Shown: piece after piece, positions 25,656 through 30,192 of the stretch | Layout of the letters: each line of letters opens with the position of its first letter | Position numbering within the stretch: the first letter of the stretch is position 1 | NCBI RefSeq assembly: GCF_044324875.1 | Contig: NZ_CP172185.1 | From: Escherichia coli | GTDB taxonomy: Bacteria; Pseudomonadota; Gammaproteobacteria; Enterobacterales; Enterobacteriaceae | DNA length: 64,000 nt | Strand: one strand, 5' to 3' | Program-made: the position numbers and the translations under genes | Notes under the pieces: model-generated | Told to the model about the DNA's origin: nothing | The model's database searches: none | Seen by the model: the letters and a program-made list of their open reading frames with translations, nothing else

Positions 25656-28331
25656 TTAAGCGGATTTCTTCGCTTTTTTCTCAGCTTTAGCCGGAGCGGC
25701 TTCCTTTTTCGCTGCAGTTTCACCTTCTACATAATCACGACCGTAGTAGGTATCCAGCAGAATCTGTTTCAGCTCGGAGATCAGCGGGTAACGCGGGTTA
25801 GCGCCGGTGCACTGGTCATCGAATGCATCTTCAGACAGTTTATCCACATTCGCCAGGAAGTCTGCTTCCTGAACGCCAGCTTCACGGATAGATTTCGGAA
25901 TACCCAGTTCAGCTTTCAGCGTTTCCAGCCATGCCAGCAGTTTCTCGATCTTAGCAGCAGTACGGTCGCCCGGTGCGCTCAGACCCAGGTGGTCAGCAAT
26001 TTCAGCATAACGACGGCGAGCTTGCGGACGGTCATACTGGCTGAATGCAGTCTGCTTGGTCGGGTTGTCGTTCGCGTTGTAGCGAATAACGTTACAAATC
26101 AGCAGGGCGTTTGCCAGACCGTGCGGAATATGGAACTGGGAACCCAGTTTGTGCGCCATTGAGTGACATACACCCAGGAAGGCGTTCGCAAACGCGATAC
26201 CCGCGATAGTTGCTGCACTGTGAACACGTTCACGCGCTACCGGATTTTTAGATCCTTCGTGGTAGGACGCTGGCAGATATTCTTTCAGCAGTTTCAGCGC
26301 CTGCAGAGCCTGACCATCAGAGAACTCAGATGCCAGTACAGAAACATAAGCTTCCATGGCGTGAGTTACTGCGTCCAGACCACCGAAAGCACACAGGGAC
26401 TTCGGCATGTCCATAACCAGGTTGGCATCGACAATCGCCATATCCGGGGTCAGCGCATAGTCTGCCAGCGGATATTTCTGACCAGTAGCGTCGTCAGTTA
26501 CAACCGCAAACGGAGTGACTTCAGAACCTGTACCAGAAGTGGTGGTGACAGCGATCATTTTCGCTTTCACGCCCATTTTCGGGAACTTGTAGATACGTTT
26601 ACGGATATCCATAAAGCGCAGCGCCAGTTCTTCGAAGTGAGTTTCCGGATGTTCGTACATGACCCACATGATCTTCGCGGCGTCCATCGGGGAACCACCA
26701 CCCAGCGCGATAATCACGTCTGGTTTAAAGGAGTTTGCCAGTTCTGCACCTTTACGAACGATGCTCAGGGTCGGGTCAGCTTCTACTTCGAAGAAGACTT
26801 CAGTTTCAACGCCTGCTGCTTTCAGTACGGAAGTGATCTGATCAGCATAACCATTGTTGAACAGGAAGCGGTCAGTCACGATGAGCGCACGTTTGTGGCC
26901 ATCAGTAATCACTTCATCCAGCGCGATTGGCAGGGAGCCACGGCGGAAGTAGATAGATTTCGGAAGTTTGTGCCACAACATGTTTTCAGCTCGCTTAGCA
27001 ACGGTTTTCTTGTTGATCAGGTGTTTCGGACCAACGTTTTCAGAGATGGAGTTACCACCCCAGGAACCACAACCCAGAGTCAGGGAAGGTGCGAGTTTGA
27101 AGTTATACAGGTCACCGATACCACCCTGAGAAGCCGGGGTGTTAATCAGGATACGAGCCGTTTTCATTTTCTGACCGAAGTAAGAAACGCGAGCCGGTTG
27201 GTTATCCTGGTCAGTGTACAGGCAAGAGGTATGACCGATACCGCCCATAGCAACCAGTTTCTCTGCTTTTTCTACCGCGTCTTCGAAATCTTTAGCGCGG
27301 TACATTGCCAGAGTAGGGGACAGTTTTTCATGTGCGAACGGTTCGCTTTCATCAACAACGGTCACTTCACCGATCAGAATCTTGGTGTTTTCTGGTACAG
27401 AGAAGCCTGCCAGTTCAGCAATTTTATAGGCTGGCTGACCAACGATAGCCGCGTTCAGCGCACCGTTTTTCAGGATAACGTCCTGAACAGCTTTCAGCTC
27501 TTTACCCTGCAACAGATAGCCGCCGTGGGTTGCGAAACGTTCACGTACTGCGTCATAAACAGAGTCAACAACAACAACAGACTGTTCAGAAGCACAGATT
27601 ACGCCGTTGTCGAAGGTTTTGGACATCAGCACAGATGCAACTGCACGTTTGATATCAGCAGTTTCATCGATAACAACAGGCGTGTTACCCGCGCCTACAC
27701 CGATAGCTGGTTTACCGGAGCTGTATGCGGCTTTAACCATGCCCGGACCACCAGTCGCGAGGATCAGGTTGATGTCTGGGTGGTGCATCAGTGCGTTAGA
27801 CAGTTCAACAGAAGGTTGATCGATCCAGCCGATCAGATCTTTCGGAGCACCGGCAGCGATAGCAGCCTGCAGAACGATATCAGCCGCTTTGTTGGTTGCA
27901 TCTTTTGCACGCGGGTGCGGGGAGAAGATAATGGCGTTACGGGTCTTCAGGCTGATCAGCGATTTGAAGATAGCAGTTGAAGTCGGGTTAGTGGTCGGAA
28001 CGATACCGCAAATAATACCGATTGGTTCAGCGATAGTGATGGTACCAAAAGTGTCGTCTTCAGACAGAACACCACAGGTTTTTTCATCTTTATAGGCGTT
28101 GTAGATATATTCAGAAGCAAAGTGGTTTTTGATCACTTTATCTTCGACGATACCCATGCCGGATTCGGCAACGGCCATTTTCGCGAGTGGGATTCGAGCA
28201 TCTGCAGCAGCCAGAGCGGCGGCGCGGAAGATTTTGTCTACTTGCTCTTGAGTGAAACTGGCATATTCACGCTGGGCTTTTTTTACACGCTCTACGAGTG
28301 CGTTAAGTTCAGCGACATTAGTAACAGCCAT
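25656..28331 (-). CDS. adhE: Bifunctional acetaldehyde-CoA / alcohol dehydrogenase
   Basis: 891-aa [23 protein letters not shown]. Confidence 0.97.
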
Positions 28332-28807
28332 AATGCTCTCCTGATAATGTTAAACTTTTTTAGTAAATCATCTGCTCGAATACGAGAGTATAGTCAGTGC
28401 GGTGATGATTTGCTTAACCGATGAAAATCAAAAGCTTACTCGCGCTCACACTCACTGTGATTTACTAAAAGAGTTTAAACATTAGAGTTATTATCTCTAA
28501 TGCGTCACTTCCAGGTGGCGTAAGCAAGATTACTCACTTCTGGGTACTGATTACGTGATCCAAATCAAATTTTTGCAAAGCTGACACCTTTCAGCATCGC
28601 TTTTCGCCATTATAGCTAACAGTTAATAAATTGTAGTATGATTTGTTGGCTACATTATCATGTTTTGCACAACCAGATAACAATAACGAATGATAGCAAT
28701 TTTAAGTAGTTAGGAGGTGAAAAATGCTGTCAAAAGGCGTATTGTCAGCGCGTCTTTTTAACCTTATTTATGGCTAACATTATCCGGCTTTTGCTTCGGA
28801 GCTAACC

Positions 28808-29455
28808 GTGATTCAGACCCTTTTTGATTTTCCCGTTTACTTCAAATTTTTCATCGGGTTATTTGCGCTGGTCAACCCGGTAGGGATTATTCCCGTCTTT
28901 ATCAGCATGACCAGTTATCAGACAGCGGCAGCGCGAAACAAAACTAACCTTACAGCCAACCTGTCTGTGGCCATTATCTTGTGGATCTCGCTTTTTCTCG
29001 GCGACACGATTCTGCAACTTTTTGGTATATCAATTGATTCGTTCCGTATCGCCGGGGGCATCCTGGTGGTGACGATAGCGATGTCGATGATCAGCGGCAA
29101 GCTTGGCGAGGATAAACAGAACAAGCAAGAAAAATCAGAAACCGCGGTACGTGAAAGCATTGGTGTGGTGCCACTGGCGTTGCCGTTGATGGCGGGGCCA
29201 GGGGCGATCAGTTCTACCATCGTCTGGGGTACGCGTTATCACAGCATTAGCTATCTGTTTGGTTTCTTTGTGGCTATTGCATTGTTCGCTTTATGTTGCT
29301 GGGGATTGTTCCGCATGGCACCGTGGCTGGTACGGGTTTTACGCCAAACCGGCATCAACGTGATCACGCGTATTATGGGGCTATTGCTGATGGCATTGGG
29401 GATTGAATTTATCGTTACTGGTATTAAGGGGATTTTCCCCGGCTTGCTTAATTAA
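28808..29455 (+). CDS. ychE: MarC-family inner membrane protein YchE
   Basis: 215-aa membrane ORF, GTG start. Confidence 0.85.
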   Translation: MIQTLFDFPVYFKFFIGLFALVNPVGIIPVFISMTSYQTAAARNKTNLTANLSVAIILWISLFLGDTILQLFGISIDSFRIAGGILVVTIAMSMISGKLGEDKQNKQEKSETAVRESIGVVPLALPLMAGPGAISSTIVWGTRYHSISYLFGFFVAIALFALCCWGLFRMAPWLVRVLRQTGINVITRIMGLLLMALGIEFIVTGIKGIFPGLLN

Positions 29456-30192
29456 TTCCTTTCAAATGAAACGGAGCTGTCATGCTCCGTTTACTTCGTC
29501 ATTATTTTTACTTTGTTCCGGTGCAGTTATCAAAAGCAAAGGGAATGGGTAAAAATATTCTTCTTGAATTACAGTTGGTTATAAGGATTTCCTTAACTGC
29601 TTCTCCTCACCATCATGTTATTTTCGCCACATCATAATCCTGGGCTTGCTGAAGAATAATTGAAATGATATTAGTTATTCCACTGCCTTTGGTAGAGGAA
29701 AGTGCTAAATAATAATCAATTGTTAAATTATTGTGCATTTCACTACTGGAACTGTAATCAGAAAAGATAGACATGCTTAACCAATCTCTATTTGATTGAA
29801 TTGAAAGATGTTTGTTAAGACATGGATGCAAGCTATAGATTCTGATACGGTCAATAAAAGAGAATTGCTTAACAATTTTGCAAAATGTATTGGCGAGTAA
29901 GAAGCGCATTTGGTACTTTCCGGGCAACCGCCAGACGATTCTTTATTGGTAATGAGAATAATTAACAATTAAAGAGCGTCGCGAAAGAATAATGTGTCTC
30001 GACAGGGGAGACACAGTACGAATCGACATAAGGTGATCGTCTGAATCACCAGAATAAATAAAGTCGGTGATAGTAATACGTAACGATAAAGTAACCTGAC
30101 AGCAGAAAGTCTCCGAGCCTGTGCAGGGTCCCAATCCGGGATTACACATGCTGGTTAATACCAGTAATTATAATGAGGGAGTCCAAAAAACA

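Follow-up and report, generated by a model that had tools for sequence, protein, structure and literature searches.

The 17-codon reading frame upstream of ychE in the window (the whole stretch of 64,000 nucleotides that was analysed) is ychT, an already known and annotated E. coli small gene. The conservation of its first 11 codons seems to reflect primarily a DNA-level constraint, apparently imposed by an overlapping control element rather than by the peptide. The reading that we favour, to which we assign a probability of about 0.45, is that ychT, which is translated, opens a shared ychT-ychE transcript as its first cistron, that any function it has is most likely in cis, and that it lies on a conserved DNA element between adhE and ychE.

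Identity, translation and setting of ychT

The locus comprises the following features, given in positions of the window:

25656-28331, minus strand: adhE
28654..28683, minus strand: conserved sigma-70-like promoter TTGTTA-18-GATAAT directed toward adhE (promoter scan, together with TAACA and TA.CAT columns at 0.9 conservation)
28712..28720, plus strand: Shine-Dalgarno (SD) sequence AGGAGGTGA of ychT, with the ATG 3 nt downstream and the GGAGG core 6 nt before the ATG
28724..28777, plus strand: ychT CDS (b4771), 17 codons, MLSKGVLSARLFNLIYG, TAA stop at 28775-28777; exact match to the RefSeq CDS
28778..28807, plus strand: 30-nt ychT-ychE spacer without terminator or stable hairpin, containing the ychE SD sequence GGAG at 28798-28801
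28808..29455, plus strand: ychE (b1242), NAAT/MarC-family inner-membrane protein, GTG start
from ~30121/30193: oppA

The ORF reads ATG CTG TCA AAA GGC GTA TTG TCA GCG CGT CTT TTT AAC CTT ATT TAT GGC TAA, and its translation is identical to the 17-amino-acid YchT, whose gene shares the strand of ychE and lies in the adhE-ychE spacer. The gene is b4771 in the MG1655 reference NC_000913.3 (YP_010051181.1, 1298514-1298567); other E. coli genomes in RefSeq carry the frame as 'protein YchT' (WP_211180492.1), a CDS that maps exactly onto 28724-28777 in loci L001 and L002. Because the peptide and the placement with respect to adhE and ychE are identical to those of K-12 ychT, the two are the same gene, with no material difference. 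The sequence-only reading had placed the SD sequence, the ATG, the stop and the 30-nt gap before the ychE GTG correctly; its description of the ORF as unannotated was mistaken, as ychT has had a gene name, a b-number and a RefSeq protein for years. As a discovery the ORF carries little weight, having been found, validated and annotated in 2019-2020.

The ATG is preceded by TAGGAGGTGAAAA, with its A at 28724 and AAA separating it from AGGAGGTGA, which forms a 9-nt perfect complement to the 16S rRNA 3' end. A search of both strands of the 64-kb window finds this 9-mer a single time, compared with 0.20 occurrences expected from shuffled sequences and at least one occurrence in 18 out of 100 shuffles. 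Taken alone, the SD sequence of ychT is only mildly unusual. The case for translation therefore rests on the combination of this sequence, an optimally spaced ATG and published translation data, and the SD sequence by itself is insufficient.

The name ychT originates with Weaver, Mohammad, Buskirk and Storz (2019, mBio 10:e02819-18), who captured ribosomes at initiation sites using Onc112 and retapamulin and confirmed candidates through chromosomal SPA tags and immunoblotting. RiboReport includes ychT in its table of 'experimentally verified novel sORFs' from Weaver 2019, with a start-site (TIS) read count of 334, the fourth in that table, and a DeepRibo rank of 42 of ~18,000 predictions from ordinary Ribo-seq. 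Start-site profiling and the SPA-tag immunoblot (Weaver et al. 2019) bear out the earlier suggestion that this is a genuine translated short ORF rather than a chance frame; start-site profiling, which the sequence-only reading had proposed as a check, was already published for ychT, with a positive outcome. In the literature, we found no specific function published for YchT.

The ychE start lies 84 nt downstream of the ychT start on the same strand. YchE is a membrane protein with six TMS, whose amplification suppresses a threonine-uptake defect. The ychE gene carries an SD sequence of its own (GGAG), an observation that counts against a cis role of ychT. A scan of the plus strand found no terminator-like sites after 28595, hence none at 28724-28808, and the supplement of Kim 2012 contains no TSS entry for the region.

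Transposon data are available for the locus. In a TraDIS study of a strAB strain, ychT was among the top streptomycin 'fitness genes' (logFC -3.58, q = 5e-73), and in the same table adhE (-0.12) and ychE (-0.06) were neutral. Another library of that study contained few reads in ychT and gave a non-significant value (logFC -1.33, q = 0.40). The depletion of Tn5 insertions in ychT under streptomycin is thus an unexplained single-library observation, compatible with a jackpot clone or with outward Tn5 transcription. A purely cis role on ychE would leave it unexplained.

Within E. coli, the gene is nearly universal. A megablast search with the spacer showed it to be present in 5,423 out of 5,426 complete E. 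coli genomes, with 'protein YchT' and 'NAAT family transporter YchE' as the CDSs beneath, and PGAP calls ychT in essentially all of the 5,423 genomes that hold the region. The 108-nt ychT region was at least 99% identical in 5,225/5,424 E. coli records, and, of 60 records drawn from top to bottom of the ranking, 59 carried the YchT call. Compared with MG1655, the window has 6 SNPs over a 569-nt region, with one difference inside the ORF (synonymous TTT/TTC at codon 12); it has no IS5 in the ychE-oppA spacer, where MG1655 has one, and belongs to a non-K-12 E. coli. Natural variants include L7F and, in strain N96, L2R and S3L plus a 1-nt deletion by which the last three residues are replaced and the ORF grows to 26 codons. 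The ORF was intact in all 7 Escherichia species-level genomes, among which divergence is low.

Conservation of the reading frame and of the underlying DNA

We collected 80 species-level loci with YchE orthologues (88-99% identity), in almost all of which adhE lies divergently upstream at ~480-490 nt, and tabulated the homologous frame by anchoring on the conserved core, defined as follows:

28733..28757: conserved nucleotide core, corresponding to ychT codons 4-12; AAAGGCGTATTGTCAGCGCGTCTTT in E. coli, family consensus AAAnnGCGTATCTTCnGCnCGGnTTT

In approximately 53 of the 80 loci, an ATG or GTG at the homologous position opened a frame of at least 11 codons, and the encoded N-termini shared the motif M-[LRP]-x-[KN]-[GS]-V-S-S-A-R-[FIL] (in its summary form, positions 2 and 3 are left free). 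The motif was found in Escherichia, Salmonella, the C. freundii complex, Enterobacter, Raoultella, Klebsiella and Silvania; in the Klebsiella homologue, a 1-nt deletion shifts the frame after codon 8. Past codon 11 no conservation was observed: ORF length ranged from 11 to 34 codons, and the C-termini were unrelated between genera. Approximately 18 loci had either no usable start (for example, ATA or GTT) or a stop at codon 3, the latter in the C. amalonaticus/sedlakii clade, and the core was absent from ten distant genera. The full 9-mer SD sequence was confined to Escherichia and a few Citrobacter, and other genera retained GGTGA alone. The +1 and +2 frames, which are open in some clades (e.g. 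VKRRIFS..., C. sedlakii, Leclercia), were rejected as coding candidates, as their substitutions are non-synonymous.

The homologous stop was found at positions between 48 nt before the ychE start and 20 nt within ychE, and the conserved codons lay at widely differing distances from the ychE SD sequence. In five loci (L051, L055, L067, L068 and the start-less L045) the frame ran directly into that of ychE, in 11 loci it ended 2 nt before ychE (TAAccGTG), as many Citrobacter ORFs do, and in 9 loci it overlapped the ychE start (GTGA), as many Enterobacter and Raoultella ORFs do. The TAAccGTG and GTGA ends result from fixed stops around the ychE start, which are reached whenever no earlier stop intervenes. 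A stop at or near the next start, the feature expected of translational coupling, is accordingly found in many other genera and is missing in E. coli, where the stop lies 30 nt from the ychE start. Classical stop/start coupling is thus inapplicable in E. coli, which speaks against the cis reading.

A conservation profile of the spacer from 38 thinned sequences showed that the ychT core is one of several discrete conserved blocks, the others being a palindrome at 28580-28595, the promoter-like element at 28654-28683 and the ychE SD sequence. We then counted changes by Fitch parsimony on the ychE tree of 59 genomes, using the 4-fold sites of ychE (17.4 changes per site) as the neutral yardstick. 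Since a core with at most 5 mismatches was required, this set leaves out the Klebsiella indel variants and the distant genera (an ascertainment effect), and within it most core columns showed 0-2 events compared with 17.4 under neutrality. Synonymous-type and non-synonymous-type changes both occurred at rates 5-9 times below the neutral rate.

The changes that did occur were distributed as expected for a coding frame. In ychT codons 4-10, we counted 8, 4 and 31 changes at codon positions 1, 2 and 3, respectively; this concentration at third positions (31 vs 12) is as expected under peptide selection, and to that extent it speaks against the cis reading. Residues S8, A9 and R10 varied at the third base alone (synonymously), codon 11 was NTT and always hydrophobic, and the four columns that vary most, out of 21 in the core, were all in phase 3, for which a hand calculation gives a chance of 35/5985 = 0.006. 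The 'synonymous' columns evolved at less than half the neutral rate, with 0 and 2 events at the third bases of V6 and S7.

The same constraint was found where the ORF is broken. Out of the 59 core-bearing genomes, 15 lacked a usable frame-0 ORF, and the start codon had been lost repeatedly: its three columns showed 8, 4 and 9 changes on the tree, no less than their neighbours, with the start G lost approximately 9 times. The TGAA inside the SD sequence scarcely changed (0-1 parsimony events), even in lineages without the ORF. These lineages also retained the core, and the 'wobble' columns (relative positions 23 and 26) varied in them too. For example, in the C. amalonaticus/sedlakii clade, in which all 4 genomes have the stop at codon 3, the divergence was 0.44 at ychE 4-fold sites and 0.024 in the 42-nt block; the resulting block/neutral ratio of 0.054 is below the 0.076-0.24 of ORF-intact clades.

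The argument for peptide-level selection from codon periodicity is therefore weakened, because in ORF-less clades the same columns vary and the remaining block is invariant. Judged from these substitutions, conservation of the block is independent of frame-0 translation. They neither demonstrate nor exclude selection on the YchT peptide atop the constraint on the block. The codon-level substitution pattern, a check that the sequence-only reading had suggested, was thus mixed: frame-0 periodicity and the conserved N-terminal 11 residues agree with coding, and the loss of the start in 15/59 genomes, the free C-terminus and the equal conservation in ORF-less clades do not. That reading would have been abandoned if both ribosome occupancy and conservation of the frame were lacking; occupancy is documented, and the frame is conserved in part only. 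As the conserved nucleotides survive equally without the ORF and coincide with a reported transcription factor site (described below), their conservation is no evidence of a functional YchT peptide.

The overlapping control element and comparison with known leaders

The reported site covers ychT almost completely:

28723..28766: 44-bp FlhDC box predicted by MEME, within the genomic-SELEX peak of the adhE/ychE spacer (PMC9962212, Table 1)

In that study, the FlhD4C2 genomic-SELEX peak of the adhE/ychE spacer had an intensity of 26 (cutoff 10, maximum 54), a probe of the spacer was shifted by FlhDC in vitro, the predicted box was given as AATGCTGTCAAAAGGCGTATT-GTCAGCGCGTCTTTTCAACCTTA, and adhE mRNA was 'slightly' decreased in an flhD mutant (PMC9962212). 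These data show that ychT occupies protein-binding DNA within the divergent adhE/ychE control region. The promoter-like element at 28654..28683 on the minus strand is probably an adhE promoter; the ychT core lies ~85-110 bp upstream of it, a position that would be typical for an upstream activator of adhE.

The match to the FlhD4C2 box is partial. Relative to the box of flagellar class II promoters (AAYGSSNNAAATAGCG-N10-12-CGCTATTTNNSSCRTT), the left inner half-site of ychT, AAAAGGCG (AAAAAGCG in other genera), resembles AAATAGCG; compared with the bipartite 42-44 bp consensus as a whole, the left half of the block is a moderate match and the right half a weak one. Unlike in the FlhD4C2 box, the most invariant bases of ychT, GTATCTTC, sit in the nominal spacer. 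Klebsiella and Raoultella are classically non-motile. The block was equally conserved in both genera, and its conservation does not track motility. Because of this, and because of the location of GTATCTTC in the nominal box spacer, we do not think that FlhDC is the general cause of the block conservation.

Other DNA-level candidates were considered. A Pho box was rejected: the E. coli repeat CTGTCA...TTGTCA is spaced by 15 bp rather than 11, is Escherichia-specific, and has a low reported PhoB ChIP signal. Inspection by eye against consensus sequences gave no convincing match for sigma-28, sigma-54, Cra, NsrR, PurR, Fis, IHF or NarL, which is evidence neither for nor against these factors. GTGAAG and TATCTT (TATTGT in E. 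coli), the hexamers with the least variation, lie 17 bp apart; with the former as -35 and the latter as -10 element, GTGAAG-17-TATCTT could be a weak plus-strand sigma-70 promoter for ychE inside ychT; it agrees with the consensus at 7 of 12 positions, and the promoter scan misses it.

We also searched for RNA structure in the ychE leader. The fold of positions 28700-28850 had no unusual energy (MFE z = 0.26), RNAalifold on 22 species gave a consensus of -0.98 kcal/mol with 0 compensatory pairs, and a search of Rfam returned no family, the only match being a chance one to rliB (E = 0.36). On these grounds, an RNA switch or attenuator was rejected. The peptide MLSKGVLSARLFNLIYG contains no run or repeat of regulatory amino-acid codons. 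The lack of a fold, covariation, an Rfam family or a terminator speaks against attenuation, riboswitch-like control and any hairpin for a stalled ribosome to unfold. More generally, the comparative tests argue against ychT as a classical leader or attenuator, given that there is no stable or conserved RNA structure, that the frame is only partly conserved, and that the nucleotides are kept where the ORF is destroyed; the leader role suggested by the sequence-only reading is thus favoured neither by structure nor by conservation.

With the attenuation leaders trpL, thrL, hisL, pheL, ilvL and leuL, ychT shares a short ORF with a good SD sequence upstream of an amino-acid metabolism or transport gene; unlike them, it has no regulatory codon run, no terminator/antiterminator hairpins and no conserved RNA structure. 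ErmCL, CatA86L, CmlAL, TnaC, SpeFL and MgtL resemble ychT in that a short conserved peptide part is followed by unconstrained codons; unlike in these systems, in ychT there is no RBS-hiding structure, no Rho or intrinsic terminator and no known arrest motif, and the element outlives the broken ORF. The pairs pssL-pssA, yoaL-yoaE, baxL-baxA and argL-argF are like ychT in having a very short ORF, translated according to start-site profiling, 5' of a larger gene on the same strand. These four overlap the downstream start in another frame, whereas the E. coli ychT ends 30 nt upstream. The homologues in Citrobacter, Enterobacter and Raoultella, however, end 2 nt before the ychE start or overlap it. 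Weaver et al. examined leader function only in smORFs overlapping their downstream gene (pssL, yoaL, baxL and argL), ychT not being among them, and removal of the uORF start shifted expression of the downstream lacZ reporter up or down.

Explanations for ychT and their implications

In the cis-acting reading that we favour, ychT would be co-transcribed with ychE, as suggested by the 30-nt gap, the common strand and the absence of a terminator between them. The short uORF would load ribosomes onto the ychE leader or protect it, and ychE translation or mRNA protection would be modestly affected, to an extent comparable to the effects that Weaver et al. measured for pssL and yoaL; YchT itself would probably not act as a conserved diffusible peptide. 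The ORF sits on a block of ~45 bp, GTGAAg-N12-AAAnnGCGTATCTTCnGCnCGGnTTT, belonging to the divergent adhE/ychE control region and kept with or without the ORF, and the extended 9-nt SD sequence of Escherichia and a few Citrobacter would make this block unusually well translated there. Because the perfect 9-nt SD sequence is limited to these lineages, the high translation of ychT in K-12 may be lineage-specific.

Translation could also be pervasive and without function, the block being purely DNA regulatory, with an SD-like GGTGA and an ATG present by chance and a perfect SD sequence reached by drift in Escherichia. We regard this as somewhat unlikely. It would accommodate the conservation of the block regardless of the ORF, the start-codon columns that are unconstrained relative to their neighbours with repeated loss of the start G, the absence of constraint on C-terminus, length and stop position, the frameshifted YchT tail of E. 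coli N96, and the fact that no phenotype or function has been published for ychT. Against it stand the frame-0 periodicity of substitutions and the intact ORF in all Escherichia species-level genomes and essentially all E. coli, although divergence there is low, and also a TIS signal among the higher of the Weaver set, the high DeepRibo rank and the accumulation of tagged YchT. The detection of tagged protein also fits a trans-acting small protein, in which the N-terminal decapeptide M-x-x-K-[GS]-V-S-S-A-R-hydrophobic would modulate a larger protein such as YchE, a membrane factor or a translation-related factor. Substitutions that are coding-like in frame 0 only, including the synonymous variation at S8, A9 and R10 and the NTT of codon 11, the recurrence of the motif in Escherichia, Salmonella, Citrobacter, Enterobacter, Raoultella and Silvania, and the depletion of Tn5 insertions in ychT under streptomycin with neutral insertions in ychE and adhE fit this proposal. 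It nevertheless appears improbable, given that the 'wobble' columns vary and the core is unrelaxed in lineages without the ORF, that the ORF is missing in about a quarter of the core-bearing genomes and that minimal ORFs have 11-13 codons, that the 17 residues have no transmembrane potential, and that the TraDIS effect appeared in one library only.

Drug-inducible leader peptides combine a conserved N-terminus with a free C-terminus, a pattern that YchT shows. A metabolite or a drug that targets the ribosome might accordingly make the ribosome arrest at approximately codons 10-12 and so alter ychE expression, as in the ErmCL, CatA86 and CmlA leaders, and the transporter-family membrane protein encoded downstream and the streptomycin TraDIS hit would suit such a role. 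We consider it highly improbable: the leader has no hairpin, whether RBS-sequestering or a terminator, that a stalled ribosome could remodel, the conserved codons lie at variable distances from the ychE SD sequence, and the block is kept in ORF-less lineages. To our knowledge, YchT has no likeness to any known arrest motif. Distinctly unlikely, in our estimate, is a dual use of the DNA, in which an ancient cis-regulatory block of ~45 bp is also read by ribosomes, and either the decapeptide K-[GS]-V-S-S-A-R-hydrophobic gained a function or Escherichia turned an operator into a proto-gene. If this were true, the decapeptide would be a nascent-peptide sensor or a small-protein regulator, perhaps tied to the streptomycin TraDIS phenotype; alternatively, ychT would be a recent, highly translated Escherichia proto-gene that arose from a non-coding operator by way of a perfect SD sequence.

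The DNA-level constraint at ychT calls for caution in interpreting the ychT TraDIS hit. Mutational work on ychT must keep apart the effects of the peptide, of translation as such and of the DNA motif that ychT shares with the region upstream of adhE; this can be achieved with point mutations of the start codon or the SD sequence together with synonymous recoding, and not with deletions or insertions. The conservation of a small ORF is often read as evidence of a functional peptide, and the case of ychT shows that such a reading is invalid here.

A predicted FlhDC box on ychT and transposon data

In the adhE/ychE spacer, a previous study reported an FlhD4C2 gSELEX peak, a gel shift and a 44-bp FlhDC box predicted by MEME (PMC9962212). 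We mapped this predicted box to positions 28723–28766 of the window, that is, almost exactly onto the open reading frame (ORF) of ychT, the annotated 17-codon gene in this spacer. The same bases serve both the ychT ORF and a transcription-factor site, the latter being the MEME-predicted FlhDC box.

Transposon data are also available for this gene. In a TraDIS analysis of a strAB strain exposed to streptomycin, Tn5 insertions in ychT (b4771 in MG1655; window 28724–28777) were strongly depleted (logFC –3.58, q = 5e-73), and insertions in adhE and ychE were neutral in the same dataset; in a second library, the depletion of ychT under streptomycin was not significant (PMC10879529 supplement). The depletion could reflect a jackpot clone, or it could result from outward transcription from the transposon.

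Conserved elements on the adhE side of the spacer

Two elements facing adhE or lying in its leader region were found:

28654–28683, minus strand, facing adhE: sigma-70-like TTGTTA-18-GATAAT (promoter scan and conservation profile)
28580–28595, adhE 5΄ leader region: near-perfect palindrome GCTGACACCTTTCAGC

The first is probably an adhE promoter. Across genera, conservation is ~90% at its TAACA and TA.CAT columns. The transcription start that it implies (~28647) differs from the –292 start of the older literature, which corresponds to window position 28623; the TACAAT –10 element at the latter start is conserved only weakly. The columns of the palindrome are among the best conserved in the spacer in the conservation profile, and the terminator scan of the window called it as a hairpin. 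The palindrome presumably conforms to the operator consensus of Cra/FruR (GCTGAAnCGnTTCAGC-like), a regulator known to target adhE.

Variation within E. coli

We found a natural ychT variant in E. coli strain N96 (locus L085, 56–167). It carries L2R and S3L at codons 2 and 3, and the loss of one nucleotide from codon 15 lengthens its ORF to 26 codons. Its TAA stop lies 2 nt before ychE, an end point shared with Citrobacter and E. coli E69, and PGAP made no YchT call for it. This variant could be an assembly error. A search of complete E. coli genomes placed 13 of ~5,430 adhE-ychE spacer matches in plasmid-labelled records and showed two to three copies of the spacer in a few genomes.

The spacer on the other side of ychE contains an annotated ORF:

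~29613–29909, minus strand, antisense in the ychE-oppA spacer: PGAP 98-aa 'hypothetical protein' (WP_001211512.1 / WP_001211520.1)

At this site, the ORF listing of the window gives a 104-aa ORF with a TTG start, whereas MG1655 carries IS5 (insH21) in the ychE-oppA spacer instead; the window is thus not K-12 DNA.

Sequence upstream of ychE in other genera

The distant genera Atlantibacter, Cedecea, Franconibacter, Siccibacter and Buttiauxella lack the conserved nucleotide core of ychT and have in common a distinct conserved motif 5΄ of ychE:

~40–60 nt upstream of ychE: motif TTTTCCATTACATTACGC (YchE-orthologue loci L034, L036, L041, L052, L058, L059, L061, L071 and L074–L076)

Another frame, beginning MRKKRIFCAVIGVAILYLQSC..., lies upstream of ychE in Leclercia sp. 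29361 (L069, locus positions ~1415–1500); it looks signal-peptide-like, with a lipobox-like LQSC. Several genera have an ORF 5΄ of ychE that runs in frame into ychE (L045, L051, L055, L067 and L068, locus positions ~1415–1500), and such in-frame upstream ORFs would yield YchE with an N-terminal extension.
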